NCBI GenBank assembly: GCA_030390025.1
Contig: JASTWF010000034.1
Coordinates: 1,550,001 to 1,614,000, forward strand
Direction: 5' to 3'
Length of the DNA stretch: 64,000 nt
Source of the DNA: Squalus acanthias
Taxonomy: Eukaryota
The translations under genes and the position numbers were made by a program. The stretch's first letter is position 1. Each line of letters starts with the position of its first letter. Below the pieces are notes generated by a model. The model was not told the DNA's origin and ran no database searches. It saw nothing but the letters and a program-made list of their open reading frames with translations. Below, one piece after another: positions 21,658 to 59,992 of the stretch.

Positions 21658-22559
21658 TTAACTTAGTGACGGTTGTGATCCTGTCTCAGGGAAAGTGCGG
21701 TCTCTCCAAATGTGTCACTCGCTACCTGGTGGCCATGGCAGCGGCGGATCTACTGGTCGTTATCCTCGACCTGATATTGAGGCACATTCCCATTGTTTAT
21801 TGGGAACAATTTTATTTCGTGGTGTACATCCCCGTGTGTAATATCCACGCCGTCCTACTTTATGCAGCCACAGACTGTTCAGTCTGGTTCACCGTCACTT
21901 TCACCTTTGATCGATTTGTGGCCATTTGTTGCCAGAAGCTGAAAACTAAATATTGCACCGAGAAAACGGCGGCTGTGGTTCTGGGAACAGTGACTGTGCT
22001 GAGCGGTTTAAAGGACATCTCCTGGTATTTTATGATCACAAATCGGTATAGGCTTCTGAACGACCCCTGGTTTTGTGAGTTCACAAACGATGTTCTGTAT
22101 TCACGGGTCTGGGCATCAATCGAGTTCCTCCATTATATTCTCACCCCGTGTGTCCCATTTGCAGTGATTCTGCTGCTCAATGCTGTCACCGTTAGACACA
22201 TTTTAGTGGCCAGCAGAGCCCGCAGGAGACTCCGGGGTCCCAGCAGTGGGGAGAGTCCCAGAGATCCAGAGATGGCGAGCCGCAGGAAATCCATCATTTT
22301 ACTGCTTGTTATCTCCGGCAATTTCATCCTGTTATGGGCAGTGTTTATGGTGTTTTCCATATCGTGGCGGATGTGGAATTTGGGGTATCAGTCTGTATAT
22401 CTACCAGTTTATGTACAGGAATTGGGATTCATGCTGCAGCTGCTGAGTTGCTGCACAAACACTGGTATTTACACCGTGACCCAGACTAAGTTCAGAGAGC
22501 AGTTGAAGAATGTGGGGAAATATCCCTTTACTCTGATTGTAAAATTCATTAAAGGATGA
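21658..22559 (+). CDS. GPR139-like: Gene B exon 2: TM1 end to TM7 and C-tail of a GPR139-like class A GPCR (spliced protein 360 aa)
   Basis: Acceptor tttcccttcctcacAG ends at 21657; frame open to TGA at 22557-22559. Motifs MAAADLL (TM2), C..HAVL (TM3), TFDRFVAIC, ECL2 Cys (PWFC), LLW (TM6), NTGIY (TM7) and KFR helix 8. Confidence 0.93.
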
Positions 22560-22614
22560 GAAGAAGCGGAGACTTTGCAGTCTGAGTGTTGACAGTTCCC
22601 TGGGCCTGATATTG

Positions 22615-23980
22615 TGTCGCCCGCACAAAGATGTCGGCTCTGGGGCCCAGCACGAAAATGGCGGCTCCGGTGCCCGTACAAAGATGGCGGCACCCGCGTC
22701 CCGCACAAAGATGGTGGCACTGGGGAAACGCACAAAGATGGTGGCTTCGGGGCCCGTCCAAAAATGGCGGCAGACGCGTCCCGCACAAAGATGGCTGCTC
22801 CGGTGCCCGTCTCAAATTTGGCGGCTCCGGGGCCCATCACAAAAATGGCGGCTCCCGCGTCCCGCACGAAGATGGCGGCATCCGCACCCAGTACAAATAT
22901 GGCGGCTCGGGGGCACCGTACAAAGATGGCGGCATCCGCGTGCCGCACAAGGATGGCGGTTCTGGGGCATCGCACAAAGTGGGTGGCACCCGGGCCCAGC
23001 ACAAAGATGGCGGCTCTAGGGACTCCGCACAATGATGGCGGATTTGGGGACTCACAAAGATGTCAGATCTGGGGATCCGCACAATGATGGCGGATCTGGG
23101 GACCCGCACAAAGATGGCGGATTTGGGGACACGCACAAAGATGGCGTCTCTGGCGCCCCGCACAAAAATGGCAGCTCTGGGAAACCGCGCAATGATGGCG
23201 GCTTTGGGGCCCCACAAAACATGGTGGCACCCGCGCTCCTCACAAAGATGTAGGCACTGGGGCCCAGCACAAATATGTCGGTACCCGTGCCCCGAACAAA
23301 CATGGCGGCTCTGCGGCCTCGTCCAAAGATTGTGGCACTCGCGCCCCGCACAAAAATGGCGGCTCTGTGACCGAGCACAAATATGGCAAAACCCGAGCGC
23401 AGCACAAATATGGCGTCACCTTGGCCCAGCACAAAGATTGCGGCAACCGCGCACCGCACAACGATGGCAGCACCCTCGCCCAGCACAAAGATGGCGGCTC
23501 TGGAGCCCTGCACAAAGATGATGGCCCTGGGGACACGCAGAACGATGGCGGATCTGGGGACCGCACAAAAATGGCCGCATACGCACCCCGCCCAAAGTTG
23601 GCTGCACAGGCGCCCCGCGCAAAGATGGCGTCTCTGGCGCCCCGCCCAAAGATGGTGGTACAGGCGTTCAGCACAAAGATGGCGGCTCTGGCGCCCCGCA
23701 AAAAATAATGCAGTCTCTGCCCCCCCCCCACCCCACAACGCCCAGTACAATGATGGCGGCACTGGGTCATCGCACAAAGATGGCAGCTCCGGCGCCCCTC
23801 ACAAAGATGGCGGCTCTGGGGTGCTGCACATAGATGGCGGCGCTGGGGCTCTGCACAAAGATAGCTGCGCTGGGGCTCCGCACAATGATGACGTCTCTGG
23901 GGCCTCACACAAAGTTGGCGGCTCCTGGGATCCGCTCAAATTTGGCGGCTCTGGGGCCCTGCACAAAGATGGCGGCTCTC
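22615..23980. repeat. CpG-rich minisatellite, 27-28-bp unit gcacaaagatggcggctctggggcccc, about 50 copies
   Basis: Directly visible; gives 9-aa periodic pseudo-ORFs (HKDGGSGAP). Confidence 0.95.
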
Positions 23981-24295
23981 ACTCGGGGAATTTCCCCGGC
24001 GGCGGGCGGCGAATGTTCGGAGGGCGGCAGCAGTTGTAGGCTCGGTTAAAGTGAGAGCGGTCGGCGAGGTGGAGCAGCCCGGGTCCGCCCAGTCCACAGG
24101 GGCCCGAGCAACCCAGCCCGGGGAGGAGGAGGCCCGGCACAAGGACTTTATTAATCATTATAACCCTTTATAATGCTTTAAAATCACTACACCACTTTAC
24201 AGTTCTTTTATAACCCTTTATAAATGATTTTGAATATTAATAAAACATTATGAGGCTTTATAAATCATTATGACACTTAATAAATCATTTTTAAA

Positions 24296-24706
24296 ATTCA
24301 TTCCTGTAATGTGGGCGTCGCTGCCAAGGCCAACATTCTATTGCCCATCCCTAATTGCCCTTGAGAAGGGGGTGGTGAGCCGCCTGAGGCAAGCGAGTGT
24401 CTTGTGGGCCATTTCAGAGACCAGTTAAGAGTCAACCACATTGCAGTGGGTCTGGAGTCACATTTCAGCCAGACCAGGTGAGGACGGCAGATTTCCTTCC
24501 CGAAAGCCCATTAGTGAACCAGATAGGTTTTTTACGAAAATCTGGTACTTTCATGCTCACTGTTACATGACACTAGCTTTTTATTCCAGATTTGTTTCAT
24601 TGATTGAATTTAAATTCCCCAGCTGCTGGGAATATGAACTCTGGATCATTTGTCCAGGAATCTGATTTACTAGTCCAGTAACATAACCACTATGCTACCG
24701 TACCCT
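24296..24706 (-). mobile_element. HE1-like tRNA-derived SINE
   Basis: The reverse complement starts gggtacggtagcatagtggttatgttactggactag (A box), has gagttcatattccc (B-box-like) and ends gggcaattagggatgggcaata...gaatgaat. Family name is from recollection of elasmobranch HE1, not from a search. Partial mirror copy at about 58238-58490. Confidence 0.7.
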
Positions 24707-24709
24707 TCA

Positions 24710-24920
24710 AATATATCGCCGTTCCTTCATCGTCATTTGTCAAAAGCCTGAAAATGCTTCTGTACCAGTATTGTGGAAGCACCTTCACCACACGGACTGC
24801 AGCGGCTCAAGATGAAGGCCCACCATTTGCACATGGGTAACTCGGGATGGGCAAGTGATATCGGCCTTGACAGCGTTACCCATATCCTGAGAACAAATGC
24901 ATAGAAATAATAAAATAGGA
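24710..24920 (+). mobile_element. HER1-type LINE 3' end
   Basis: ccttcaccacacggactgcagcggctcaag...gggatgggca matches 57165-57240. Confidence 0.7.
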
Positions 24921-25164
24921 TTAAATTCAATGATTTTATAATTCATTGATTTAAACCAGGCGAGGCCTGTGATCAGAGCGGGGCGTCAAGTACGCTAAAC
25001 AAATTGTCAACACCACTTGGATCACTAATTTTATGGTTGTATGATTGATACTACTCATATTTTCCCAATTTCCCTCTCCTTAGAAAAGGTGCTTGATAAA
25101 GTATCACATATTACCAAAATTGAAGCCCATTGGATTAAAGTGGCAGTGACAACATTGAGTGTCA

Positions 25165-26500
25165 TGGGATATATCAGTATGTAAGAGAGGATTAAAATGT
25201 GGGGGATATCAGAGTGCTACAGTGAGGGGGTTGGTATATATCAGAGTGTTACAGTGAGGCGTATGGGGTTTATCAGCATGTTGCGGTGAGCTGTGTGGGG
25301 TATGTCAGTGTTACAGTGAATGGTGTGGGATATATCAGAGTGTTACAGTGAGGGGTGTGGGGTATATCAGCGTGTTACAATGAGGGATGTGGGATATATC
25401 AGTGTGTTACAGCGCGGGGTGCGCCGTATCTCAGAGTGTTAAAGTGCGGTGAGTAGGGTATATCGGTCTGTTACAGTGAGAGGTTTGGAATATGTAAGAA
25501 ATGATTAAAATGAGGGGTAAATCAGAGTGTTAAAGTGAATGCTGTGAGCTATATAAGAGTGTCACAGTGAGGGGTGTGGGATATATCAGAGTATTATAGT
25601 GAGAGGTGTGGGGTATTTCAGTGTGTTACAGTGAGGGGTGTGGGGTATATCAGAGTATTACAGTGAGGGGTGTGGGGTATATCAGAGTGTTACAGTGAGG
25701 GGTGTGAGGTATATCAGAGTGTTACAGTGAGGGGTGTGGGGTATATCAGAGTATTACAGTGAGGGGTGTGGGGTATATCAGAGTATTACAGTGAGGGGTG
25801 TGGGGTATATCAGAAAGTGTTACAGTGAGGGGTGTGAGGTATATCAGAGTGTTACAGTGAGGGGTGTGGGGTATATCAGTGTTACAGTGAGGGGTGTGGG
25901 GTATATCACAGTGTTACAGTGAGGGGTGTGGGGTTTATCAGCGTGTTGCAGTGAGAGGTGTGGGATTTATCAGAGTGTTATAGTGAGGGGTGTGGCATAT
26001 ATCAGACTGTTACAGTGAGGGGTGTGGGGTATATCAGAGAGTGTTACAGTGAGGGGTGTGTGGTATATCAAACTATTACAGTGAGGGGTGTGGGGTTTAT
26101 CAGCGTGTTGCAGTGAGAGGTGTGGGATTTATCAGAGTGTTGAAGTGAGAGGTGTGGGATTTATCAGAGTGTTACAGTGAGGGCTGTTCGGTATCTCAGT
26201 GTGTTACAATAAGGTGCGTGGGTTATATCAGTGTGTTACATTGAGGGAATTGGGGTATATCAGAGTGTTAAAGTGAATGGCATGGGGTATATCACAGTGT
26301 TACATTGAGGGGTGTGGGGTATATCAGAGTGTTAAAGTAAGGTGAGTGGGGTATATCGGTCTGTTACCGTGAGAGGTTTGGAATATGCAAGAAAGGATTA
26401 AAGTGAGCGGTACATCAGAGTGTTAAAGTGAATGGTGTGGGGTATATCACAGTGTTACATTGAGGGGTGTGGGGTATATCAGAGTGTTACAGTGAGGTGA
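25165..26500. repeat. Minisatellite, 32-bp unit atcagagtgttacagtgaggggtgtggggtat, about 40 copies
   Basis: Directly visible; homogeneous core at about 25560-26200 with diverged edges. Confidence 0.95.
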
Positions 26501-26539
26501 GTGGTCCATTACTCTGTATCTAACCCACGTGTACCTGCC

Positions 26540-26676
26540 TGTTCCAATGAAAGGTCAACGACCTGAACCGTTAACTCTGTTTCTCTCTCTACAGAAGCTG
26601 CCTGACCTGCTGGGTATTTCCAGCATTTTGTGTTTTTACTTCAGATTTCCAGCATCCACAGTATTTTGCTTTTGTG
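26540..26676 (+). mobile_element. Solo Penelope-type terminal repeat with a decayed hammerhead motif
   Basis: aaggtcaacgacctgaaccgttaactctgtttctctctct...gctgcctgacctgctgggtatttccagcattttg matches the termini of the 34987-37577 element. Confidence 0.75.
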
Positions 26677-26720
26677 CGTCTGCCTGGAATTGTGTGAATG
26701 GACAGGATTGAGGGCCCTTT

Positions 26721-27545
26721 AAGAACATAAGAACATAAGAACATAAGAAATAGGAGCGCAGTATGCCATTTGGCCCTTCGAGCCTGCTCCGCCATTCAAT
26801 ATGATTATGGCTGTTCTTCTACCTCAACTCCAGTTTCCTGCACTATTCCCATATCCCTTGTTTCCTTCAATATTCAAAATTCCATGGAGCTCTGTCTTGA
26901 ATATACTCAACGACTAAGCGTCCACAACCCTCTGGACTAAAGAATTCCAAAGATTCACCACCCTCTGAGTGAAGAAATGTCTCCTCATCTCAGTCCTAAA
27001 TATCCGACCCTTATTCTGAGACTGTGACTCCTGGTTGTAGAATCCCCAGCCAGGGGAAACATCCTCCTTGCATCTATACCTGTCAAGCCCTGTAAGAATT
27101 TTGCTTTTTTTCAATGAGATCACCTCTCATTCTTCTAAATTCTCGGGAATATAGGCCTAGTCTACTCAATCTCTCCTCATAGGACAATCCCCCCCATCCC
27201 AGGAACCAGTCCGGTGAACCTGCGTTGCACTCGCTCTTTGGCAATTATATCCTTCCTTCGGTAAGGAGACCAAAACTATACACAGTACTAAAGGTGTGGT
27301 CTCACCAGGGCCTTATATAATTGCAGTAAGACGTCTTTACTCTTATACTCAAATCCTCTTGGAATGAAGGCCAACATACCATTTGCTTGCCTAATTGTTT
27401 GCTTTACCTGCAGGTTAGCGTTCAGTGATTCGTGTAGAAGGACACCCAGGTCCCTCTCAACACCAACATTTCATATTCTCTAACCATTTAAAAAATACTC
27501 TGCTTTTCTATTTTTCCTACCAAAGTGGATAACTTCATATTCAAA
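26721..27545 (-). mobile_element. CR1 LINE 3' fragment
   Basis: aagaacat-repeat tail at 26721-26750 and FRTEMRRHFFTQRVVNLWNSL. Mirror remnant at 57850-58235. Confidence 0.85.
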
Positions 27546-29532
27546 CCACATGTTTCGTCCACGTAAGATATTAGAATATTAATCACAATGCAACCAGACA
27601 ATCAACAAATATAAAGTGCTGTAGTTCTTTAATTCGCAGTATTAAAAAGAACTGAACAAAATGGGTATCCGTATTTTCAACTTCAATCACTTCCATTAAT
27701 AAATGTTGCATTCTTGAACTAGCACTCCAACCATGTAACATGTCAGAAATGCAGCACTTAAATCCCAAGTGTAGAAAAACACATACAGAGTTTGTGTCAC
27801 TGAATTAAAAACAAAAAGCAGGAAAAGCTATGATTTAACAGAAATAAACATTTGTCTTTCTTCCTGGACAGGAGAACCAGTCAGACTGACTTGGAAATGT
27901 TTACTCATATGTTGACGTGAAGATTTATAATTTACCAATTTAACTTCTAATGTTTTTCTCTCAAACATTCTCCACAATATTAATCCCTGCTCTTATCACG
28001 AAAAGTGATGAATTGTTTTAGCTAATTCGCAATTAAAAGCGGGAAACAAACGACATTGTACTCTCAATTTTTAATCTCCTATTTCAAACATTCAAACCAA
28101 ATCGAATTGTACGTTATCAGTTTAATCAAAGCATTTTCTGTGTCTTTCTCAATAAACAAAGAGTGGTTTCTTCTAAAGTAGCTTCCTGCAATTTTTATAC
28201 ATCATTACATAACTCTTGTTTCTATTAACACTCCACTAAATGTTTAAGAAGAAATCTATATTTACATTAATCCTGCGACTTGCTAGGACTATGGAACACA
28301 GAAAAAATAAAATGGTTTGTGTTTTTCCCATTTTTGGTTCTCTTCCTAAATGTCTTAATGGTATATTTTTAAAAAGTCATTAAAAATTAATATGTAACTC
28401 CTACAAATCCTCCCCTGCCCTCCCCAGCCTCAACACCATAGTTGCATGTATGTGTAAAGCTACTCACTTCACTTGATCACTCAAACTCTAATATTGAGAA
28501 ACTTCAATTTTAAAAATTTTAAGCATTTCAGAGCCTCTTTGAATGCGTTTGGACTTCAAGAGCTGGTTGAAATTTGTTTAGGTGAGGGGAAAATTGGCTT
28601 TTGCTTCAGTATCTTCCAAAATCATATTCGAAACTTAGGGGGAAAAAGTGTTTTAATACACATTTTTTGTGAAAAGTTCGTTAAAAATCTTTAAACTCTT
28701 TCAAGTTTAATTGCAGCTTTGGCAGAAGAAGTTGCTCCAAGTTTCTCTTTCCCCCTTCAATGCTGTCGTTAAACATACGACAAAATATAATAAAATAAAG
28801 TCTGATTCCAAACGGAGCACAAATCAGAAAGTGAATAAAGTGATTAAACTTCCCAAGAAGGTGGTGAGGTTATCTCTCCCCAGACTTGGCGATGAGTTGG
28901 GAGCAATTTTTGGAGATGTTGTTTCCTGTTTTTCTGCTGCCGTCCCTCCGTCTCTCAGGCTCTGAGGTACAAACGGGGGCACAAACGTTTTCCCCTCTCT
29001 CGCAACATGAATTAAATAACCCTGATAAACTTTTCAAAAAGGGGACGAGCCCTGGCAAAATTGAACTGGAACTTACCACGAAATATTCAGCATCACTTTC
29101 CCATGTCCCTTTCCGGCTTTAAATAATTTTCTGAATTAAAAAAAAAATTCTCATACTTTTGTTTCACCGCGGTGTTAAAACAATGTTTGCTTTCACCTCC
29201 TTCCAGCGGCCACTATATACGCGCTGCACCTCCGCCTGTGTTGTTGCAAATTAAGGCCGCCGGTCAGTTCCCAGGAACGGACTACACGCGTCTCCGCGGA
29301 AAAAGTACTGAAACAATCCAGAGGCAACGCTCGCCGGTTTCCAGGACTCCGTATCTCAGCAAATGTTGTTCCAATTCGGATCGGCTCTGTGAGTTCACAA
29401 ACGGCTCTGTGAGGATTCGCGGGTCATTGGGTATTAGGCCTCTCTGCCCGCTCCTGCTCACTGCGCCGCCTGTGAATTTCAGTGCGCGGGACCTTACAGA
29501 TCGCCGTGCACCCACGCACCTTACAGGGAACA

Positions 29533-29700
29533 TTGCTCAGCAGGTCAGGCAGCATCTGTTGTGGGAGAAACAGAGTTAATGTTTCAGGTCGATGGCATTT
29601 CATCAGAACTGGGAAATTTATGATGTAACAGATTTTAAGCAAGGACAGAGGCAGGGAAAGGGTTGAATGGAAGGAAAGAACAAAAGGGAAGGTCTGTGTT
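29533..29700 (-). mobile_element. Solo Penelope-type terminal repeat with a hammerhead-like motif (29574-29610)
   Basis: ctcagcaggtcaggcagcatctg...gagttaatgtttcaggtcgatggcatttcatcagaact. Same ancestral insertion as 54895-55040. Confidence 0.75.
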
Positions 29701-30600
29701 GTACCTGTCCTGGGTGTATTTGGCGGGATTGGGTAGCAGGAGCTTTACTCGTGATGTACTTACCTTGGGAGAATTTGCTGGCACAGTGCAGAGGGATATT
29801 TACCCAATACCTAACAGGTGCTGCACCTGCTGTGGAAATGTTTGATGAGTCAGTGTAGAAGTAGATTTAACCTGTATCTAACCCATGCTGTACTTGCTCT
29901 TGGAGTATTTGATGGGGCAGTGTAGAGGGAGCTTTAAGCTGTATCTAACCCATGCTGTACCTGCTCTTGGAGTATTTGATGGGGCAGTGTAGAAGGAACT
30001 TTAATCTATTACATTACATAGTATTTACAGCACAGACACAGGCCATTCGGCCCAACAGGTCCATGCCGGTGTTTATGCTCCACACGAGCCTCCTCCCACC
30101 CTACTTCATCGCACATCCTTCTATTCCTTTCTCCCTCATGTAGATATCCAGCTTCCCCTAAAATGCTTCTATGTTATTCGCATCAATTACTCCATGCGGT
30201 AGCGAGTTCCACATTCTCACTACTCTCTGGGTAAAGATGTTTCTCCTGAATTCCTTGTTGGATTTATTAGTGACCAACTTATATTGATGGCCATTAAATC
30301 ATCAAAGCCCTGTACCTGCCCTGGGAGTGTTTGATGGGACAGTGCAGAGTGAGTTTTACTCTTTATCTAACTGGTGTTATACCTGACCTGTTTGATGTGT
30401 GTTTGATGGGGACAGTAAAGAGCGAGATTCACTCGGTATCTATCGCGTGCTGTACCTGCCCTTGGAGTGTTCAATAGGTCTGTGTAGAGCAAGCTTTACC
30501 CTTTATCTAACCGGTGCTGTAGCTGACCTTGGAGTGTTCGATGGAGCATTGTAGAGGGAGTTTTACTCTGTACCTAACCCGTGGTTTACCTGCCTGTGAG
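29700..30600. repeat. Degenerate tandem repeat of about 65 bp (tgtacctgccctgggagtgtttgatgggacagtgtagagggagctttactctgtatctaacccgtgc), interrupted by a CR1 3' fragment at about 30010-30300
   Basis: Recurring unit visible; mirror copies at 53880-53985 and 54760-54890. Confidence 0.8.
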
Positions 30601-34986: not shown

Positions 34987-37577
34987 AAATAAAAACAGGA
35001 AATGCTGGAAATACTCAGCAGGTCAGGCAGCATCTGTGGAGAGAGAAACAGAGTTAACTTTTCAGGTCGATGACCCTTCGTCAGAACTGGAAAAAGATAG
35101 AGATGGAACAGGTTTTTAAGCAAGTGCAGGGGCAGGGAAAGGGGGGAGGGGAGGAAAGAACAAAAGGGAAGGTCTGTGATATGATGGAAGGCAGGAGAGA
35201 TGAAGAGACATTAAGAGAGATAAAGAGATGGTGCAAGGCAAAAGGAGATGGTAATGGGACAAGTTAAGAAACAAAGGATGGCTCTAGATGAAGCGCAAAT
35301 TGCACTGGCAGAATGAAAGACAGCTGCCATGAAACAGAGGGAAAAAAAGAAAAAAAATGATTGGGGCAGAGGTCATGTTCTGAAATTGTTGAACTCTATG
35401 TTGATTCCAGAAGGCTATAAAGTGCCCAATCGAAAGATGAGGTGCTGTTCCTCGAGCTTCCGTTGAGATTCATTTAAACAGTGTAAGAGACCGAGAACGG
35501 TGAGGTCAGAGTGGGAGTGGAGCGGTGAATTAAAGTGAGAGGCGACCGGAAGCTTGGGGTCACACTTACGGATTGAATGGAGGTGTTCCGCAAAGCGGTC
35601 ACCCAATCTGTGTTTGGTCTCCCCAATGTAGAGGAGACCGCATCGTGAGCAGCGAATACAGTATACTAAATTTCAAGGAGTACAAGTAAATTGCTGTTTC
35701 ACCTGGAAGGAGGATTTGGGGCCCTGGACAGTGGGAAGGGTGGATGTCAAATGTATGTGTTGCATCTCCTGCGCTTGCACGGGAAGATGCCGGGTGAAGG
35801 GGAAGCAGTGTTGGAGGTGATAGAGGAGTGGACCAGGGTGTCTGGAGTGAGCGGTCCCTTCGGAATGCTGAAAGGGAAGGTGAGTGGAAGATGTGTTTGG
35901 TGGTGGGATCACGCTGGAGGTGGCGGTAATGGCGGAGGATGATCCGTTGAATGTGGAGGCTGGTGGGGTGAAATGTGAGGACAATGGGAATACTATCGTA
36001 GTTCCGGGAGGGAGGGGAAGGGGTGAGAGCAGAGGTGCAGGAAATACAACGGACATGGTCAAGGGCCTTGTCAACCACAGTAGAGGGGAATCCTCGGTTG
36101 AGGAAAAAGGAAGGCATGTCGGAAACACTAATGTAGACGGTGGCATCATCAGAGCAGATGCAGTGGAGGTGGAGAAACTGGGAGAATGGAATAGAGCCCT
36201 TACAGGAAGCGGCGTGGGAGGAAGTGTAGTCCAGGTAGCTGTGGGAGTCAGTGGGCTTGTAGTGAATCTTTGTCAATAGCATATCCCCAGAGATGTAGAC
36301 GGAGAAGTCGAGGAAGGGAAGAGAAGAGTCGGAGATGGACCATGTGAAGGTGAGAGTAGGGTGGAAATTGGAAGCAAAGTGAATGAAATTTTCTAGTTCT
36401 GAGCGAGAGCAGGAAACAGCACCGATACATTCATCGAAGTACCGGGAAAAAAGGTGAGGGTGGGGACCTGAGTAGGACTGGAACAAAGAATGTTCCACAT
36501 ATACCACGAAAAGGCAGGTATAGCTAGGACCCATGCGGGTTCCCATAGCAACACCTTTAATTTGGAGGAAGTGAGTGGAGTCAAAGGAAAAGTTGTTCAA
36601 TGTGAGAACAATTTCAGCCCAGCGGAGGAGGGTGGTGGTGGATGGGGACTGGTTGGGCCTGTGTTCAAGGAAGAAGCGGAGCGCCCTCAGGCCATCCTGG
36701 AGGGCGATAGAGGTGTAGAGGGATTGGACGTCCATAGTGAAAAGGTTTGGTTGGGGCCAGAAAACTGGAAAGTGTTAAATTGAGTGAGGGCATCGGGAGA
36801 GTTGCGGATGTGGGTGGGAAGAGACTGGACAAGGGGAGAAAAAATAGACGAGATAGGAAGAGATAAGTTCCGTGTGGCAAAAACAGGCTGAAACGATGGG
36901 TCTCCCAGGGCAGTCCTGTTAGTGGATCTAGGGAAGGAGGTAGAAGCGGTCTGTGCGGTGTTGGGGCACTATGAGGTTGGCGGCCGTGGAGGGAAGATCT
37001 CCAGAGGAGATGAGGTCAGTGACGGTCTTGGAAACGATGGCTTGATGTTCGGTAGTGGGGTCATGGACCAGGCGGAGGTACGGGGTTGTGTCAGCGAGTT
37101 GGCGTTCAGCCACCGCTTGTTAGAGGCCGGTTCGCCAAACAATCACAGCACCACCCTTGTCAGCACGTTTACTGACAATGTTGGAGTTGGATCTGAGAGA
37201 ATGGAGTGCTGCAAGTTCAGAGGGAGGTAGGTTAAAGTGAATGAGGGGAGCAGAGCCGGCCGATGTCACGCCGGCAGTTTGCAATGAAAAGATCTCGAGA
37301 GGTTAAGGTAGAACGAGAATTGTGAAAACGGGAGAAAGGGTCAGCTGTGCGGGGGGAAGACCCCTGGCCAAAGAAGTGGGCACGGATGCGAAGGCAGCGG
37401 AAAAAGAGCTCAGCATCGTGCCGAGCTCGAAATTCATTCGTATGGGGGCGTAAGGGGATTAGGCTCAGGCATTTGCTACCTCCGTCCTTCCCACCGATGC
37501 TGCCTGACCTGCTGAGTATTTGCTGCATTTTCTGTTTTTATTTCAGATTTCCAGCATGCGCAGTATTTTGCTTTTGT
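34987..37577 (-). mobile_element. Penelope-like retroelement (RT plus GIY-YIG endonuclease), frameshifted, with inverted terminal repeat and 15-bp TSD
   Basis: RT: MDVQSLYTSI, QIKGVAMGTRMGPSY, RYFDE, PFLD, YKPTDSHSYL. Endonuclease: VYCIRCSRCGLLYIGET...RFAEH...VASHFN. acctttctgattctg flanks both ends (34972-34986 and 37578-37592). 34987-35035 is inverted relative to about 37495-37545. Confidence 0.92.
35052..35088 (-). ncRNA. Minimal type I hammerhead ribozyme motif in the Penelope 3' terminal repeat
   Basis: AGUU-CUGACGA-A-GGGUC-AUC-GACCU-GAA-AAGU-U-AACU: both core boxes, stem II and a 4-bp stem I are present; the stem III palindrome is mutated. Confidence 0.65.
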
Positions 37578-38204
37578 ACCTTTCTGATTCTGCCTTGTCC
37601 ATTGATATGTTAATCCGTTAATAGCCCAGGGCAGCACTGCTCTGACCAGGACATTTTTTTTGCTGATTTAAAACCTTTACCTCTGGCACTTGTTGTGAAA
37701 ATATCAAACACTGATCCCACACGAGCCCCCGCACTTTATCTTCTGTTCACTCCCTCAGTTAAACAGAAGAGAAAGGGCGAAGATACGGGAGGGTGAGAGT
37801 AACAGATACTGAAACTAATATACAGAATATACAGAATCAGTGAGAGGGACTGAGAAACTGAAACAAACAATAGAGGCGGTATTTTAAACCGGGCAATGTG
37901 GGATCAGAGAGAGATACAGAAAGATGTGCAGAGAGACTCAGAAATAATGCCACACTCAGAACCTCATTAAAATGGCCACGGCGGCGTGTATTCCAAGCTG
38001 GGAACATCCCCGCACTCCCCAGAAAGTGCGAACCTCTCTTTTAAAAGGGGTTAAGCTGTTGATTCCTTTGGGACACTTATTAAAATCGCCGTCCTGGGAT
38101 TGATTTTTGAATCTTGACATTCTGGAAGGATGTGACAGAGGGGCTTTTCTGCAGACGCTGGGAGCGGGGCAGTGACTAAACACTGGAGACCCCCAGAGCC
38201 ACTG

Positions 38205-41646: not shown

Positions 41647-41677
<31 letters not shown>

Positions 41678-42432: not shown

Positions 42433-42477
<45 letters not shown>

Positions 42478-43070
42478 TCTGTCTCTCTCTCTCTGTCTCT
42501 CTCTCCCTGTTTCACTCTCCCTCGGTTTCTCTCTCCCTCGGTTTCTGTCTGTTTGTGAGTGTCTCACTCTCTCTCTCCCTGTCTCGCTGTCTCCTTCTCG
42601 CCCTTTGTTTCTCTATCTCCTTTTCTCATACCCTCACTCTTCCTCTGTGTCTCTCTTTCTCCCTCCCTCTCTCTCTTTATCTTTTATTCCTACTGACTTT
42701 CTGCCTCTCCGTTTCGTTCTCTCTGCCTATCTCGCCATCTTTTTCTGCCTCATTGTAAAAACACAAACACTGGCGATCCCCGTGTCTCTCCCTCTCCCTG
42801 CCCTCCTGTACCCGCTCGGCTCAGGATAGTTGCTCTGTGTGCATTAAATGTTACAGTGCATCTCCCACTTCTGTCATTTAACAGTCACGTCCATCTGTGT
42901 CCCCCTCTCTCTCACTCTCTCTCTCTCCCTCTCTCTTTCTGCCCCTATCTCTCTCTCCCTCGCTTTCATTTTCACTCCCCCTCTCTCTGTTCCTATCGAG
43001 GTCCCCATCTCTGTCCCTATTTCTCTTTCTTTTAATCATCTGCTCTCTCTCTATTTCTTTCACTCTATCT
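42285..43070. repeat. CT-rich low-complexity tract
   Basis: Directly visible. Confidence 0.85.
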
Positions 43071-43529
43071 CAGCTTTAATCTTGATTGAAATGTACTCTG
43101 AAATGTTTATATCTACCATTTGAAATGACGACAACTCACATTGCTGTATGCTGCATTTTTTAGATGTTAAAGTTTTAGAGAGGGAGACGGTGAAAGCTGG
43201 AGAGAGACAACAACACAACTTTTATTTGTATAGTGCCTTTAATGTAGTAATACCTCCCAGGGCGCTTCACAGGAGTTTTATAAAACAAAATTTGACATCG
43301 AGCCACATAACAGATAAAGATGGAGAGAGACACAGAGCAAGATGGAGTGAAATATACACAATAATAAATCCACACTCAGAACCTCAGTAAAATGAATTAA
43401 AATGGCCACCGCGCATCTCATTTAACCGACAAAATCATCGCATCGCCCAAAACACCAACATTTTTCTGGAATAACAAGCCTTTGCACGGGTTCACATGGA
43501 GGACTTTAATTTCACAAACTCAGGAGCGC

Positions 43530-43655
43530 TCTACAGCAAACGCGGCAGCCAATCTGTCCACAGCAAGCTCCCACAAACAACAATGTGTTAATAACCAGAT
43601 GATCGGTTTCAGTGATGTTGGTTGAGAGATAAATGTTGGCCTCAGGACATCAGAG
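43530..43655 (-). mobile_element. DeuSINE (SacSINE1/AmnSINE-type) central-domain fragment
   Basis: Reverse complement tctcaaccaacatcactgaaa...tgtttgtgggagcttgctgtggacagattggctgccgcgttt. Second copy at 48115-48260. Family name from recollection. Confidence 0.55.
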
Positions 43656-43704
43656 AGCGACACCAGCAGAGGGAGGTAGCGATAGGCATGCAACTGAGTG
43701 TGCC

Positions 43705-45880: not shown

Positions 45881-47434
45881 ATGTGCAGTAAGCGATACAG
45901 AATAAGATAGAGAGAGAAACCACAGACCCCACACAGGAACGGGGCCAAGAACAGTTCCCAGTGATTCCACCCACAGCTCACACCCAAGCTAGCAGAGAGA
46001 TTGGAAGGAGCAAGTGGGGAATGGGACCTACTTCTACCCCTTCCTCGCCCCCTCTCCATCGCGCCCGCTGTAACCTCCTACCCCTCAGGGGTGTGTATTC
46101 CAAGGCTGGGAACATCCACTCACTCCCCAGAAAGTTCGAAACTCTCTCTTTAAACTGGCATTAAGCTGCTGATTCCTGTGGGACACTTATTAAAATCACC
46201 GTCCCGGGATTTATTTTTGAATCTTGACATTCGTGAACGGTGTGACAGAGGGGCTTTTCTGCAGAGGCTGGGAGCGGGGCAGTGACTGCACACTGGAGAA
46301 CCCAGAGCCTGTGCCTCTCCCTGTGTGTTTAACCCAGTGAACTCCCTCTGTGTCTCTCCCTCTGCCTCTCTCTCTCTCTCTCCCTGTTTCTGTCTCCCTC
46401 TGTCTCTCTTTCTTTCTCCCCCATTTATTTCTCCCTATCTTGGATTTAATTTTGATTGAAATGTACTCTGACATATTTCTGGCTCACCGTTTAAAACAAC
46501 GACAAATCCAATTTTTGTGGACGGCATTTTTACTTATTAAAGGGCAGAATAGAGAAATTGAGAGGCAGTCAAAGATGGAGTGAAGGTAAATATCTCATTG
46601 CTGTATGTCATTTTTTAAACATAATTAAGATTGAAAGAGACAGATAGAGGGAGAGGGTAAAAAATGATACAGACAGAGAGAGATATAGAGAGAGACAGAC
46701 AGAGGGAGAGAAAGAGAGAGACAGGCAGAGGGAGATATAGAGAGAGACAGACAGAGCGAGAGATAGAGAGAGACAGACTGAGGGAGGGAGAGAGACATGC
46801 AGAGGGAGGGAGAGAGACAGACAGAATGAGGCAGAGAGACAGACAGAGGGAGAGGGAGACAGACAGACAGAGGGCGAGAAAGAGACGTACAGAAGGGAAG
46901 ATGAAGAAAGAGAGAGACAGAGAAATCGACACTCAGAACCACAGTTAAATGAATGGTGTTTATCCCAGTCAACTCTCTGTGTCTCTCCCTCTGTATCTCT
47001 CTCTCTCTCTCTCCCTTTTATTTCTCCCTATCTCGGATTTAATCGTGATTGAAATGTACTCTGAAATTATTCTGTCTCACCATTTAAAATAACGACAAAT
47101 TCAATTGCTGTGGGCGGCACTGTTTACGTATTAAATGGTTAAATAGAGAAATTGAGAGACAGTCAAAGGTGGAGAGAAAGAGAGACAGAGGGAAAGAGGA
47201 GAGAGATTGAGTCATCAACAACTTGTATTTATACAGCGCCTTTAACATAGTAAAACGTCCCAAGGCGCTGCACAGCAGTATTGAAAGACAAAAAATTTGA
47301 AATAAGGAACATATCATTGCTTTCTGTCATTTTTTAAACAGAGTTAAGGCTGAAAGAGACCGACAAAGGGAGAGGGTGAGAAAGAGAGATACAGAGAGAG
47401 GGAGAGATAGAGAGAGATCGACAGAGGGAGAGAA

Positions 47435-47466
<32 letters not shown>

Positions 47467-47498: not shown

Positions 47499-47529
<31 letters not shown>

Positions 47530-53040: not shown

Positions 53041-53044
53041 ATAT

Positions 53045-55040: not shown

Positions 55041-55835
55041 AGGTGTGCAATGTTCCCTGTAAGGTGCGTGGGTGCGCGGCGATCTGTAAGGTCCCGCGCA
55101 CTGAAATTCACAGGCAGTGTAGTGAGCTGCGGTGGGCGGAGGGGTCCAATACGCAATGACCCGCGAATCCTCACAGAGCCGTTTGTGACCTCACAGAGAC
55201 GATCAGAATTGGAGCAATATTTGCTGAGATGTGGAGCCTTGGAAGCCGGCGAGTGTTGTCTCGGGATTCCTTCAGTACTTTTTCCCTGGAGACGCATGTA
55301 GTCCGTTCCCGGGGACTGAGCGGCGGCCGCACTTTGGAACACCACAGGTGGAGGCGCAGCGCGTATACAATGGTACAATGGCCGCTGGAAGGAGGCGAAA
55401 ACAAACATTTTTTAGCCCCGCGTTGAAACAAAACTTTGAGGGTTTTTTTTAATTCTGCAAATTGTTTAAAGCTGGAAAAGGATACGGGAAAGTGATGTTG
55501 AATGTTTCGTGGTAAGTTCCAGTTCAATTTTGCCAGGGCTCGTCCCCTTTTTGAAATAGTTTATCCGGATTATTTAAATCATGTTGCGAGAGAGGGGAAA
55601 TGTTTGTGCCCCCGTTTGTACCTCAGAGTCTGAGAGACAGAGGGAACGGCAGCAGAAAAGGAGGAAAATAAATCTTTAAACTGATCCCAACTCATCGCCA
55701 AAGCTGGGGAGAGATAACCTCACCGCCTTCTTAGGAAGTTTAACCACTTTATTCACTTTCTGATTTGAGCTCCGTATGGAATTAGACTTTATTTTATGTT
55801 TTTTGTTGTATGTTTGAGGACAGCATTGAAGGGGA

Positions 55836-57300
55836 TACTTTACATCAGCATTCGGGGGTAATGTTGAAATCTACCCAGGTATGTCCTGTCCACAAAAAGC
55901 AGGACAAATCGAACCCGGCCAATTACTGCCCCATCAGTCTACTCTCAATCCTCAGCAAAGTGATGGATGGTGTCATCGACAGTGCTATCAAGCGGCACCT
56001 ACTCAACAATAACCTGCTCACTGATGCCAAGTTTGGGTTCCGCCAAGACCACTCGGCTCCCGACCTCATTGCAGCCTTGGTCCAAACATGGACAAAGGAG
56101 CTGAATTCCAGAGGTGAGGTGAGAGTGACTGCCCTTGACATCAAGGCAGCATTTGATGGAGTCTGGCATCAAGGTGCCCTAGTAAAACTGAAGTCATTGG
56201 GATTCAGTGGGAAAACTCTCCATTGGCTGGAGTCAAACCCAGCACAAAGGAAGATGGTTGTGGTGGTTGAAGGTCAATCCTCACAGCCCCAGGACATCGC
56301 TGCAGGATTTCTTCAGGGCATTGTCCTAGGCCCAACCACCTTCAGCTGCTTCATCAATGACCTTCCCTGCAACATAAGGTCAGAAATGAGGATGTTCGCT
56401 GACGACTGCACGGTGTTCAACGCCATTCACAACTCCACAGATAATGAAGCAGTCTATGCCCGCCTGCAACAAGACCTGGACGATGTTCAGGCTTGGGCTG
56501 ATAAGTGGCAGGTAATATTCGCGCCACAGAAGTGCCAGGCAATGACTATCTCCAACACGAGGGAGTCTAACCACCTCCACTTGACATTCAATGGCATTAC
56601 CAACGCCGGATCCCCCACTATCAACATCCTGGGGGTCACCATTAACCAGAAACTTAACTGGACCAGCCACATAAATAATGTGGCAACAAGAGCAGGTCAG
56701 AGGCCAGTAATTCTGCGACGAGTGTCTCACTTCCTGACTCCTCAAAGACTTTCCACCATCTAAAACGCACAAGTAAGGAGTGTGATGGAATACTTTTCAC
56801 TTGCCTGTATGAGTGCAGCTCCAACAACACTCAAGAGGCTCGATCCCATCCAGGACAAAGCAGCCCGTTTGATTGGCAGACCATCCACCACCTTTAACAA
56901 TCACCCCCTCCACCACCGGTTTACCGTGGCTGCAGTGTGCACCATCTACATGATGCACTGCAGCAACCCGCCAAGGCTTCTTCGTAAGCACCTCCCAAAA
57001 CTGCAACCTCTTCCACCTAGAAGGACAACAGGCGCATGGGGACACCACCACCTTCAAGTTCCCCTCCAAGTCACACACCATCCTGACTCAGAAGCATATC
57101 GCCGATCCTTCATCGTCGCTGGGTCAAAATCCTGGAACTCCCTCCCTAACAGCACAGTGGGAGTACCTTCACCACACGGACTGCAGCGGTTCAAGAAGTC
57201 GGCTCACCACCACCGTCTCAAGGGCAACTAGGGATGGGCAATAAATGCTGGCATTGCCAGCGAAGCCCTGATCGCACAAAACGAATAAAAATAAATTATA
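55836..57300 (+). mobile_element. 5'-truncated LINE of a second CR1-superfamily lineage (HER1-like), RT domain
   Basis: NYCPISLLS, FGFRQDHS, ALDIKAAFDGVWH, QGIVLGP, MFADD, LGVT. The 3' tail agggatgggcaataaatgctgg is shared with the HE1-like SINE. Confidence 0.85.
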
Positions 57301-57849: not shown

Positions 57850-58490
57850 AGAAATGTGAAGTTATCCACTTTGGTAGGAAAATTAGAAAAGCAGAGTATT
57901 TTTGAAATGGTGTGAGATTGGGAAATGTTGGTGTTCAGAGGGACCTGGCTTTCCTTCTGCAAAAATAACTGAACGTTAACCTGCAGGTACAGCAAGCAAT
58001 TAGGAAAGCAAATGGTATGTTGGCCTTTAATACAAGAGCATTTGATTATAAAAGTAAAGACGTCTTATGGCAATTATATAGGGCCCTGGTGAGACCACAG
58101 CTGGAGTATTGTGTACAGTTTTGGTCGCCTTACCTAAGGAAGGATATACTTGCCATAGAGGGAGTGCAGCGAATGTTCACCAGACTGTTTCCTGGGATGG
58201 GGGATTGTCCTCTGAGGAGAGATTGAGTAGACTAGACCAAGAAAGTACCAGGTTGTCGTAAAAACCCATCTGGTTCACTAATGGCGTTTAGGGAAGGAAA
58301 TCTGCCGTCCATACCTAAAATATGACTCCAGACACACTGCAATGTTATTGATTCTTAACTGGCCTCTGAAATGGCCCAGCAAGACACTCGCTTATCTCAG
58401 GCGGCTCACAACCACCCTCTCCAGGGAAAATAGGGATGGGCAATAAATGCTGGCCTTGTCAGCGATGCCTACATCCAAATAATGAATTAT
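57850..58490 (+). mobile_element. CR1 fragment (about 57850-58235) joined to the 3' part of an HE1-like SINE (about 58238-58490)
   Basis: LYRALVRPQLEYCVQFWSPY; then aaaacccatctggttcactaatg...agggatgggcaataaatgctggcc. Confidence 0.75.
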
Positions 58491-58805
58491 AAAAATGATT
58501 TATTTATTGTCATAATGATTTAAAAAGCATCATAATGTTTTATTAATTGCCATAATGATTTAAAAAGGGATATAAAGATATGCAAAGTGGTGTAAGATTT
58601 TAAAGTATTATAAAGTGTTATAATGATTTATAGAGTCCTGGTTCCAGGCCTCCTCCTCCCCGGGCTGGGCTGCTCCTGCTTCTGTGGGACGGGCCGGGCT
58701 GGGCTGCTCCTCCTCGTCGCCCACTCGCATGGTAAATGGGAGTCCAACTGCTGCCGCCCTCCGGATGATCGCCTCCCGCCGCCAGGGAACGGCCGCAAGT
58801 GAGGG

Positions 58806-58940
58806 CCACCATCATTGTGCGGATCCCCAGAGTCGCCATCTTTGTGCCGGTCCCCCACAGCTGCCATCATTGTACGGGGCGCCAGAGCCGCCATCTTTGT
58901 GCGGGGCGCCAGATCCGCCATCTTTGTGCTGGGCGCCACA
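58806..58940. repeat. Five units of the 27-28-bp CpG-rich repeat, 3' of gene C
   Basis: gccatctttgtgc-type cores; reverse complement of the 22615-23980 unit. Confidence 0.85.
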
Positions 58941-59090
58941 ATATCAGGCCCAGTGAGCACAGTGCAGACAATGTGTGAGTGAACGTGTGAATGTCCCAGA
59001 TAACCGGGCCGCCGGCCCAGAACTGGCGAGAGCTGCTCACCACAATATCAGGCACAGGGAAGTCTCGGGCTGCAAAGTCTCCGCTTCTTC

Positions 59091-59992
59091 TCATCTTTTA
59101 ATGTATTTTACAATCAGAGTAAAGGGATATTTCCCCACATTCTTCAACTGCTCTCTGAACTTAGTCTGGGTTACGGCGTAAATCCCAGTGTTTGTGCAGC
59201 AACTCAGCAGCTGCAGCATGAATCCCACTTCCATTACATAAAAAGGTAGATCTACAGAATAATCCCCCAAATTCCTCATCCGCCACCATATAGAAAACAC
59301 CATCAACACTGCCCATAAAAGGATGAAATTGCCGGAGATAACAAGCAGTAAAATGATGGATTTCCTGCGGCTCTCCATCTCTGGGTCTCTGGGACTCTTC
59401 CCACTGCTGGGGCCCCGGAGTCTCCTGCGTGCTCTGTTGGCCACTAAAATGTGTCTGACGGTGACAGCATTGAGCAGCAGAATTACCACAAATGCGATCC
59501 CCGGGGTGAGAATATAATGAAGGAACTCGATTGGTCCCCAGACCAGTGACAACTGAACATCCATTGTGACATGACAAAACCAGGGGAGGTTCCCATGCGC
59601 ATACCGATCTGTGAACATAAAATACCAGATGATGTTCTTTAAACCGCTCAGCACAGTCACTGTTCCCAGAACCACAGCCGCCGTTTTCTCGGTGCAATAT
59701 TTCGTTTTCAGCTTCTGGCAACAAATGGCTACAAATCGATCAAAGGTGAAAGTAACGGTGAACCAGACAGAACAGTCTGTGGCTGCGAACAGCAGGACGG
59801 CGTGGATATTACACACGGGGATGGACCACAGGAAATGAAACTGTTCCGAATAAATAATCGGAATTTGCCTCAATATCAGGTCGAGGATAACGACCAGTAG
59901 ATCTGCCGCTGCCATGGCCACCAGGTAGCGAGTGACACATTTGGAGAGGCCGCACTTTCCCCGAGACAGGATCACAATCGTCACGAAGTTCA
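59091..59992 (-). CDS. GPR139-like: Gene C exon 2: GPR139-like class A GPCR; exon 1 lies beyond position 64000
   Basis: Same phase-1 acceptor tttcccttcctcacAG (G at 59993). Open frame (V)NFVTIVILSRGKCGLSKC...TFDRFVAIC...NTGIY...IKR*, collinear with gene B exon 2 with no indels. Confidence 0.92.

Follow-up and report, generated by a model that had tools for sequence, protein, structure and literature searches.

A large family of class A receptors in sharks and rays joins a constant signalling side to diversified extracellular loops and may be a chemosensory repertoire

Two genes in one stretch of shark DNA encode receptors that are nearly alike on the cytoplasmic side of the membrane and often different on the outside. 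To what family do they belong, and what might it sense? The stretch, 64,000 nucleotides of Squalus acanthias contig JASTWF010000034.1 (the window), had been read as holding GPR139-like paralogues with shared signalling and diversified ligand specificity; we call this reading the original prediction.

The genes, B and C, are two-exon class A GPCR genes. Their second exons lie in open reading frames at 21630-22559 (+) and 59091-60020 (-), each of 309 aa without a stop, and begin at 21658 and 59992 respectively, the first bases following ...cacag acceptors. A tblastn search with N-terminal sequences taken from six full-length shark relatives matched 7900-8079 at E ~1e-21. The exon 1 of gene B located in this way holds the initiating Met, an N-terminal tail that lies outside the cell and carries an NVT sequon, and the outer TM1 segment; the exon stops in phase 1, the donor gtaagt following directly on its final g. 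It sits 13.6 kb upstream of exon 2, so that the coding region is interrupted at codon 61, and the two exons together give 1083 nt / 360 aa, equal to the length of the relatives. The features are:

4993..5169, reverse strand: exon 1 of a third family member, 'A' (tblastn, E as low as 2e-16)
7900..8080, forward strand: coding exon 1 of gene B (tblastn and direct sequence reading)
8081..21657, forward strand: intron of gene B, 13.6 kb (GT..AG boundaries read)
14923-15522, reverse strand: Harbinger-type DDE_Tnp_4 ORF in the gene B intron (Pfam)
16250-18831, reverse strand: LINE with RVT_1 and endonuclease domains in the gene B intron (Pfam)
20549..30213: B-side arm of an inverted duplication, collinear with 63346-53665
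21658..22559, forward strand: coding exon 2 of gene B, from the inner end of TM1 to the C-terminus, 300 codons and stop
22620..23979, forward strand: 27-nt GC-rich minisatellite, 50.8 copies, beginning 60 nt past the B stop codon
53665..63346: C-side arm of the inverted duplication (blastn, window against itself)
58802-58938: short version of the same 27-nt minisatellite, after the gene C stop
59091..59992, reverse strand: coding exon 2 of gene C, convergent with B

Mobile-element remains fill the gene B intron (Pfam) and, with simple repeats, the space between B and C. An intact exon 1 of gene C was found 15.4-15.6 kb past the right end of the window, in the 20 kb examined on that side; at other copies the coordinates place the two exons about 7.6-16.7 kb apart. 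The exon 1 of 'A', 68% identical to that of B and divergent from it at a spacing of 2.7 kb, has an in-frame stop inside the match, and exon 2 of 'A' is absent from the window.

Class A membership is clear from Pfam 7tm_1, which scores 63.1 bits for B (E 3.7e-17) and 68.6 bits for C (E 7.8e-19) against a cut-off of 30.5; it was the only model reported, the olfactory-receptor model giving no match at E<=0.01. Identity as odorant receptors (OR) was rejected on this absence and on the 13.6-kb intron that splits the coding region; OR, TAAR, V1R and T2R coding regions are intronless. The AlphaFold model of a relative 81% identical to B (P0006; pLDDT 86.9, pTM 0.85) has seven helices, helix 8 and an ECL2 hairpin, and among solved folds Foldseek places GPR139 closest, followed by peptide, chemokine and chemerin receptors. 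C121 and C200, the TM3-ECL2 disulfide pair, are present in at least 90% of 48 aligned relatives. Several class A motifs take variant forms that are conserved family-wide: DRF, with R146 invariant, in place of canonical D/ERY; a tryptophan, at what we take by the general numbering convention to be position 6.48, without the next proline of canonical CWxP; and N-T-x-x-Y where NPxxY is canonical. In gene B, exon 2 carries DRF, NTxxY and helix 8, all conserved, together with the hypervariable sites of ECL1, ECL2 and ECL3.

How B and C differ was recomputed throughout. BLASTP aligns their second exons without a gap, as predicted, with 262 of 307 residues identical (85%); the 50-aa TM3-ICL2-TM4 block said to be identical shows 0/50 differences, and the earlier hand counts came out the same, at 7/15 for ECL1, 16/35 for ECL2 (residues 180-214) and 8/21 for ECL3 (296-316). 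With the topology fixed in advance from the AlphaFold model of a full-length relative (pLDDT 86.9), the 125 extracellular-half codons hold 33 of the 45 differences and the 174 cytoplasmic-half codons 12 (odds ratio 4.8, Fisher p=5e-6). The skew is thus genuine, but to say that the receptors differ "almost only" on the extracellular side was too strong, because 27% of the differences fall elsewhere. Within the identical block four of the 150 nt differ, all synonymously, a level close to the gene-wide dS. What has kept the block identical is thus purifying selection, not a recent conversion of one gene by the other.

Comparison of the window with itself by blastn places both genes in an inverted segmental duplication whose arms are 80-90% identical and broken by insertions, and in which homology stays collinear for at least 9 kb past the exon; the noncoding blocks differ by 416 mismatches and 30 gap openings over 3,554 aligned columns. 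A DDE_Tnp_4 ORF lies at collinear positions in the B and C introns, and family copies are scattered across many contigs, both of which would suit multiplication of the gene by a mobile element, whether a Harbinger-type transposon or retrocopying. The transposase family, however, is repetitive across the whole genome (80,863 first-look candidates, ~77% identical everywhere), and this particular intronic remnant recurs, at 91-100%, only in seven B-like copies; the copies keep the intron and so are not retrocopies, and homology between units continues over at least those 9 kb and shows no defined boundary. Carriage by a mobile element is not supported, and we regard it as scarcely credible. Growth has most probably proceeded by segmental duplication of entire two-exon units, of at least 15-20 kb and clustered, with some copies decaying by birth and death.

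The family is far from a mere handful of paralogues, as an expanded repertoire demands: a conserved exon-2 30-mer occurs 1,476 times in the 3.7-Gb genome (753+723, <=3 mismatches) and its reversed control 0 times. The resulting figure of ~1,500 loci includes pseudogenes and possibly uncollapsed haplotigs, of which a copy 99.87% identical to B over 3.9 kb (L002) may be an example. Most members look intact. The 128 exon-2 matches that were scored have identities of 85-100%, and 127 of them lack a stop, as do 150/150 scored exon-1 matches; of the fetched exon-2 copies, B and C counted, 90/91 are open and gap-free, and the B/C noncoding flanks give a neutral expectation of ~7.6 indels per 900 nt and a probability of ~0.19 per lineage of having no stop. 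Choosing copies by DNA similarity alone gave 40 places, of which 37 were examined; 31 were open and 6 broken.

Selection was estimated as omega with the GY94 codon model on 87 unique copies, the subclade nearest B, using one fixed tree and ignoring recombination. The cytoplasmic half has an omega of 0.29, below 1 at p=4e-49, and all ECLs together one of 2.34 (p=1e-14); ECL1 reaches 2.63, significantly >1, and ECL2 5.21 (p=7.5e-20). No region-wide omega >1 appears in ECL3 (0.90), the outer helix halves (0.94) or the N-terminal exon (0.60-0.67). Nei-Gojobori estimates agree with this picture. Synonymous divergence is not raised in ECL2 (dS 0.076 vs 0.089 in the cytoplasmic half); it is raised in ECL1 and in ECL3, ~2.5-fold in the latter, and is lowest in the TM3-ICL2-TM4 block. 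In their ECLs, 21 independent mutual-nearest pairs differ by Nd 56.5 and Sd 5.5 (p=0.017); ECL2 taken by itself has 26 non-synonymous and no synonymous changes (p=0.002). Across the copies, individual sites carrying at least eight amino acids are spaced like a helix face or strand. The diversifying selection foreseen for the loops is accordingly present in ECL1 and in ECL2, the latter with unraised dS, and does not extend to ECL3, whose omega of 0.90 and raised dS are what the original prediction had set down for its alternative, patchy gene conversion. The outward loops have been driven apart and the inner signalling half held constant, a pattern typical of receptors of the smell and taste type.

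Expression, whose absence was to count against the original prediction, is indicated by one spliced contig from one run (X9), the RNA nature of which is a guess. The contig runs from exon 1 straight into exon 2 across the splice site as predicted, and its exon 1 end is near-identical to B 8048-8077 (3 mismatches in 30); in the same run exon 2 is covered and 780 nt of intron have zero cover. Of the three outcomes named in advance as refuting the original prediction (few paralogues, loops without an omega above 1, no expression), none came about.

Might most of the family nevertheless be functionless, amplified passively in repeat-rich DNA, its patchwork of differences owed to gene conversion and relaxed constraint? 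A high whole-exon omega of 0.68, B/C divergence in exon 2 barely below that of the flanks (8.9% vs 11.7%), the uneven dS of ECL1, ECL3 and the TM3-ICL2-TM4 block, and the 6/37 broken copies would all be expected. Such an account has to contend with the cytoplasmic-half omega of 0.29, an ECL2 omega of 5.2 reached without raised dS, the near-complete lack of indels where ~7.6 per pair were expected, the presumed spliced transcript, and the sites with at least eight amino acids, which gene conversion cannot create. It is largely refuted, and we give it very little weight.

The name under which the family is filed says little about it. GPR139 is a receptor for aromatic L-amino acids. "Probable GPR139" stands as an automatic name, derived from the human protein, on thousands of shark gene models; human GPR139 (PDB 7VUG, 9M42) is the top Foldseek match and the sole solved structure matched in sequence at E<=1e-10 (3.8e-11, 46 bits), and it shares with the family class A membership and a similar TM3 DRx-xAxC stretch. 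At 24% identity to the human protein the predicted label "GPR139-like" is nominal only, and orthology to GPR139 or GPR142 was rejected by similarity and copy number, on that identity, the 46 bits and the ~1,476 loci. GPR139 is described, in passages of two papers, as a conserved brain/habenula receptor (PMC7946892, PMC6443882); the shark family, with ~1,500 loci and hypervariable loops, is unlike it.

Apart from a small salamander group, the nearest relative outside the elasmobranchs is the clade of Latimeria XP_005988539, 35% identical to B, a single-copy vertebrate orphan likewise auto-named "probable GPR139" and 50-66% conserved among coelacanth, catshark, sturgeon, frogs, teleosts and reptiles. 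The "GPR210" that a passage of PMC6504862 proposes beside GPR139 and GPR142 may be the same receptor. Squalus has one copy of this orphan (G000:C17:37413763-37414743), which shares 85% of its residues with the catshark protein; after it, identity falls to 38%. Membership of our family in the orphan clade was rejected, since the genome has its own orthologue and a 268-protein tree, with the Latimeria clade as outgroup, sets that clade apart as a branch of its own with support 100. In that tree the 87 Squalus copies form one clade (support 95) with no other-species proteins inside and with eight Pristiophorus proteins as sister. On these sequences the family is confined to sharks and rays, where different lineages have had expansions of their own. 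In the literature searched we found no description of it.

The explanation that we favour, a huge shark and ray family of class A receptors serving as a chemosensory repertoire, has as a whole a probability of roughly 0.6. Its evolutionary description (size, birth-and-death growth, fixed chassis with diversified rim) is highly probable; chemosensory function is our best guess, on which we would bet at even odds. B and C are members, very probably functional, among the ~1,500 loci of the genome. All members share one signalling chassis, made up of the inner helix halves, DRF, ICL2, ICL3, NTxxY and helix 8 and maintained by purifying selection, and some 25 positions around the extracellular mouth are driven to differ: the TM2 tip and ECL1; alternate residues of the ECL2 hairpin flanking the disulfide cysteine; and the tops of TM4 and TM5, one face of the TM6 top, ECL3 and the TM7 top. 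A fixed chassis under a diversified mouth would imply that every receptor has its own ligand at the outer vestibule and reports it via a common G-protein route. Ligands would then differ between copies and, if of external origin, would be chemosensory cues, perhaps peptides, amino-acid derivatives or other bulky molecules engaging the loops.

Some observations run against a chemosensory role. The two coding exons with a long intron are unlike the known intronless vertebrate chemoreceptor families. Odorant receptors vary most deep in the helix bundle; here the variable sites lie on the outer rim and loops, which fits internal or microbial peptide and protein ligands too. In a catshark "brain & olfactory epithelium" library, as reported in a passage of PMC11979771, there is no GPCR among the top 50 specific genes.

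Instead of odours the loops may track pathogen or self/non-self peptides and proteins, as an immune or microbe-sensing repertoire expressed in leukocytes or barrier epithelium. Formyl-peptide and chemokine receptors offer a precedent, and the centring of diversifying selection on ECL1 and ECL2 and not on the deep pocket, the chemokine, chemerin and other peptide receptors that follow GPR139 among the nearest folds, and the fast, lineage-specific growth are all in keeping with it. Against it, a size close to 1,500 loci is not known for any vertebrate immune GPCR family, only for chemosensory GPCRs, and the one spliced contig does not point to immune tissue. We consider an immune role unlikely. 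A little less likely still are receptors for the animal's own, equally diversified peptides (reproductive, pheromone-like or neuromodulatory), each pair co-evolving. An ECL2 hairpin and loop-centred variation, seen here in the model and the sequences, are typical of peptide receptors, and the closest relatives belong to the orphan and peptide-type receptors of class A; against this, no expanded ligand gene family is seen within the window, and 1,500 endogenous ligand-receptor pairs would be without precedent.

Known receptor repertoires share some of these features. The Mas-related GPCRs and formyl-peptide receptors of mammals are class A sets that expanded in particular lineages, with positive selection reported on extracellular domains, and some of them are used by sensory or vomeronasal neurons; they number tens of genes as against ~1,500 and belong to other class A branches. 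Like the OR, TAAR, V1R/ORA, T2R, V2R and T1R families, which run to hundreds or thousands of clustered genes with lineage-specific birth and death and a minority of pseudogenes, the shark family is a large clustered set with lineage-specific turnover that keeps its signalling side constant and shows positive selection at ligand-facing positions. It nonetheless stands outside all of them, with its variation at loops and helix tips and an intron of 12-19 kb dividing its coding sequence. MAS1-related receptors are given as lacking in cartilaginous fishes in a passage of the whale-shark genome paper (PMC8455134), and six GPCR families are presented as the core of vertebrate chemosensation in part of PMC10869828. 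That ours is a seventh, unrelated to those six, the "missing" shark and ray repertoire, expressed one per cell in olfactory or other sensory epithelium and detecting peptide-like or amino-acid-derived cues via its loops, is a tentative proposal that we think has rather less than an even chance.

Cartilaginous fishes are famed for their sense of smell. Sharks are nonetheless credited with very small sets of OR, TAAR and V1R genes and a moderate number of V2R genes (in a passage of PMC10116579), and cartilaginous fishes with a relative paucity of GPCRs (in a passage of PMC8455134). A set of some 1,500 class A receptors, most of them intact and filed in databases solely under the misleading automatic name "probable GPR139", contradicts that low-GPCR picture. 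Whatever the function, sensory, immune or endocrine, the family would rank with the largest that any vertebrate has for receptors, and it would show cleanly, in nature, how a signalling scaffold can stay fixed while the binding rim evolves. Its selection signature is that of receptors diversified by ligand, and it offers a concrete candidate for functional testing. Were it indeed a seventh chemosensory family, its ~1,500 genes would match the mammalian odorant receptors in number.

Gene B is split into a short exon 1 (7900-8080), a 13.6-kb intron and an exon 2, since the N-termini of shark relatives find their counterpart at 7900-8079, bounded by an ATG and a g|gtaagt donor in the appropriate places. 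Positions 21658 and 59992, from which exon 2 of B and of C respectively begin, are the first bases past two near-identical acceptors (a pyrimidine tract, then cacag). Joined, the two exons of B make 1083 nt (360 aa), and the full-length proteins of shark relatives have about 360 aa. The parts of the genes are as follows.

Parts of the receptor genes (window positions, strand, nature)
7900-8080, forward: exon 1 of gene B, from the ATG start; the first 60 residues of shark relatives match 7900-8079; donor after 8080
between 8080 and 21658, forward: intron of gene B, 13.6 kb
21658-22559, forward: exon 2 of gene B, behind a pyrimidine tract + cacag acceptor
21630-22559, forward: stop-free frame of B, 309 aa (ORF reading)
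59091-60020, reverse: stop-free frame of C, 309 aa (ORF reading)
15.4-15.6 kb past the window's right end: exon 1 of gene C, intact, 68% identical to that of B (20 kb right of the window examined)
5169-4993, reverse: exon 1 of a third family member, with an in-frame stop, head to head with exon 1 of B

Two further fragments of exon 1 were seen. In the C intron, on the reverse strand 5.9 kb to the right of the window, 23 residues resemble the end of exon 1 (...YYPLLAAVGVP) and may be a decayed extra first exon. Upstream of the third member's exon 1, its first ~20 codons recur in part two or three more times (DRNLRxVDWNVT motif, 5184-5288; the site spans 4993-5288, reverse strand), apparently a small tandem duplication in a probable pseudogene.

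At E<=0.01 the only Pfam family matched by B and C is 7tm_1. The structure of P0006, a full-length relative with 81% identity to B and a gap-free alignment to it, was predicted with AlphaFold from an input alignment of 48 sequences (pLDDT 86.9, pTM 0.85). The predicted fold has seven helices, a helix 8 and a beta-hairpin second extracellular loop (ECL2) joined to transmembrane helix 3 (TM3) via the conserved C121-C200. Human GPR139 is the sole solved structure reached by sequence at E<=1e-10 (3.8e-11, 46 bits), and it ranks first in Foldseek, followed by the CXCR3, cholecystokinin, ghrelin, chemerin, neurotensin and neuromedin receptors. Being the best match in both sequence and fold, it has given its name to the genes: the 120 protein matches listed are all shark gene models, all but one of them called 'probable G-protein coupled receptor 139', less similar models from sharks and rays bear the same name, and a protein-atlas look-up returned only more clusters so named. 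The original prediction's 'GPR139-like' is thus nominal: at 24% identity in the Foldseek match, the label is a best-hit name and not a statement of orthology. The family has several signatures of its own: exon 2 of all copies keeps N-T-x-x-Y (e.g. window 22458-22472) in place of the usual class A NPxxY, all copies have DRF for DRY, and the proline after the TM6 tryptophan is absent. Residue 227, a TM5 proline nearly invariant elsewhere in the family, is alanine in C.

Comparison of the window with itself places B and C on opposite arms of an inverted segmental duplication. The arms are 80-90% identical and interrupted by insertions, and their homology stays collinear over a span that starts about 1.1 kb before exon 2 and reaches 8 kb or more past it. 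A GC-rich minisatellite with a 27-nt unit (50.8 copies, 68% matches; 22620-23979, forward) begins 60 nt past the B stop codon and yields long spurious open frames on both strands; its C counterpart, in the same relative place, is a short version only (58802-58938). Between the genes, at ~38100-46100, low-complexity arrays rich in CT/AG (frames SLSLSL..., ERERER...) span about 8 kb and show a strong GC skew that changes sign near 43-44 kb. A 391-aa open frame at 35599-36774 (reverse) has no Pfam match. Remains of mobile elements are also present.

Mobile-element remains (window positions, strand, nature)
14923-15522, reverse: Harbinger/PIF-type DDE_Tnp_4 transposase remnant, B intron
63603-63998, forward: Harbinger/PIF-type DDE_Tnp_4 transposase remnant, C intron, collinear with that of B
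16250-18831, reverse: LINE remains, RVT_1 + endonuclease domains, in the B intron
55786-56763, forward: LINE remains, RVT_1 + endonuclease domains

Carriage of the family genes by such an element was considered and rejected: the DDE_Tnp_4 family is a genome-wide repeat (80,863 first-look candidates, ~77% identical everywhere), and the insertion in the B intron is common to only seven B-like gene copies (91-100%), as fits duplication of the whole unit after the transposase had inserted. Many of the scored DDE_Tnp_4 copies keep open frames of 300-600 aa. Retrocopying is ruled out because the copies retain the intron.

The size of the family was estimated in the window's own assembly (3.71 Gb). 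A 30-base stretch of the B TM3 region, allowing up to 3 mismatches, occurs at 753 places on one strand and 723 on the other, against none for the reversed control, in keeping with the expanded set of paralogs originally proposed; the resulting count of ~1,476 takes in pseudogenes and may take in uncollapsed haplotigs. A six-frame search with B exon 2 gave 128 scored places, all 85-100% identical and 127 without a stop, and a search with exon 1 gave 150, none with a stop, at identities from 100% down to 63%; the first-look candidate numbers (4,712, 2,041 and 874) do not count copies and did not enter the estimate. Family places are clustered across many contigs, some chromosome-sized (e.g. C7 148-153 Mb, C26 39-44 Mb); the contig of the window measures 6.1 Mb. 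On a different contig, one copy matches B at 99.87% identity along 3.9 kb. That recent true duplicates exist follows from two B-like copies placed 65 kb apart on one contig.

Most copies examined are intact. Exon 2 is open and gap-free over 299 codons in 90 of 91 sequences (90 fetched loci, one of them B, together with C), a sample biased to good matches. A less biased sample comprised 40 places chosen by nucleotide similarity to a 150-nt conserved block, and among the 37 examined 31 were open: 17 had been fetched earlier and were open, and the 20 others divided into 14 open and 6 broken. In 3,554 aligned columns of noncoding sequence, the B and C arms show 416 mismatches and 30 gap openings, from which about 7.6 indels are expected per 900-nt neutral stretch, and under random substitution at 4.5% the frame stays stop-free only 19% of the time. 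The neutral expectation is thus very different from the intactness observed.

Evidence of transcription was sought in public sequencing runs, none of which is registered as RNA, so that RNA labels are guesses (best share of words 0.37); four were compared with 20850-22620. Run X9 covers exon 2 and leaves the 780 intron bases essentially uncovered. One X9 contig carries 154 unmatched letters that stop just before the acceptor, and the last 30 of these have their only match in the window at 8048-8077, where B exon 1 ends (3 mismatches; no chance match in 100 shuffles). On this sequence evidence, and with the run type guessed as RNA, the contig represents a spliced transcript in which exons 1 and 2 of a close family member are joined. 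Several paralogs are present in X9, since its 29 contigs range in likeness from <90% to >99%. Runs X1 and X5 cover the intron as well and are hence uninformative on transcription; X19 behaves as DNA.

The original prediction held that the paralogs differ almost only on the extracellular side. Recounting B against C reproduced its figures in full: 7 of 15 positions differ in the ECL1 stretch, 16/35 in ECL2 and 8/21 in ECL3, a 50-aa block from TM3 through the second intracellular loop to TM4 is identical, and exon 2 aligns without indels (262/307 protein identities, no gaps). The identical block contains 4 synonymous differences and has therefore been kept by selection, not homogenised. For this pair alone dS is 0.126 and dN 0.086.

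Selection was measured by pairwise counts and partition-wise codon models, not per-site models, in 87 unique copies from the subclade nearest B (median nucleotide distance 7.1%), with region borders set beforehand from the AlphaFold model and the usual helix numbering. Over all pairs, Nei-Gojobori dN/dS was 0.25 in the cytoplasmic half, 1.16 in the extracellular half and 3.2 in ECL2; dS in the cytoplasmic half is 0.089, and ECL2 does not exceed this (0.076); in ECL1 and ECL3 dS is raised ~2.5-fold. In 21 mutual-nearest-neighbour pairs, which share no branches, ECL2 has 26 non-synonymous and 0 synonymous changes (binomial p=0.002) and all ECLs together 56.5 and 5.5 (p=0.017), the ratio in the cytoplasmic half being 0.34. 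Maximum-likelihood GY94 fits per partition, on one fixed tree without recombination, gave an omega (dN/dS) of 0.29 for the cytoplasmic half (<1, p=4e-49) and 2.34 for all ECLs (>1, p=1e-14); ECL1 (2.63, p=1.5e-6) and ECL2 (5.21, p=7.5e-20) each exceed 1, and ECL3 (0.90) and the outer helix halves (0.94) are indistinguishable from it. No omega above 1 was found in the N-terminal exon, at 0.60-0.67 significantly <1 (42 copies, 35 unique). Most of the variation lies in ~25 positions, where as many as eight residues or more, of unlike chemistry, occur at a single site.

Variable positions (protein numbering)
107-117
182, 187-196 (alternate residues, strand-like), 201-208, 213-214
293/296/297/300/301 (one helix face), 304-311, 314

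At E<=1e-30 the family matches 116 protein clusters (50% clustering). Every cluster sampled with 39% identity or more comes from sharks and rays (Heptranchias, Narcine, Scyliorhinus, Mustelus, Leucoraja); a coelacanth protein follows at 35%, then salamander proteins and a teleost protein, both at 30%. That coelacanth protein represents a conserved orphan that occurs from catshark to reptiles (50-66% identity) and is present in this genome as one copy (G000:C17:37413763-37414743, forward) that is 85% identical to catshark P0281, the next match being 38%. The orphan's public gene model is fused to TMEM183A in two species. It may be the orphan 'GPR210' that a 2019 survey proposes beside GPR139/GPR142 in coelacanth, gar and some fishes (PMC6504862). 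In a FastTree phylogeny of 268 proteins with the conserved orphan clade as root, the salamander proteins branch as the sister group of the entire elasmobranch family (support 92). All 87 copies from this genome fall into a single clade (support 95) with no foreign member, and its sister is a group of eight Pristiophorus proteins, so the large numbers arose separately within lineages.

We found no description of the family in Creative-Commons PubMed Central or bioRxiv, nor is it mentioned in passages of papers on catshark senses (PMC11979771) and the whale shark (PMC8455134) or in the abstract of one on shark olfactory receptors (PMC10116579); the whale-shark paper stresses the paucity of GPCRs in cartilaginous fish. 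Since public annotation holds the genes under an automatic name only, the sequences are already known and the family as such appears to be undescribed.

Sharks and rays have a very large, clustered receptor family that turns over within lineages, constant in its cytoplasmic half and positively selected in ECL1 and ECL2. We infer that the ligand varies from paralog to paralog and that G-protein coupling is common to them. Variation centred on the loops and a fold like that of peptide receptors suggest ligands touching the outer rim, and are compatible with an immune or endogenous-peptide role, for which room should be left. Such size and dynamics are known among vertebrate GPCRs only for chemosensory families, and by this analogy a chemosensory repertoire would be the most likely function, with a probability that we put at about one half.
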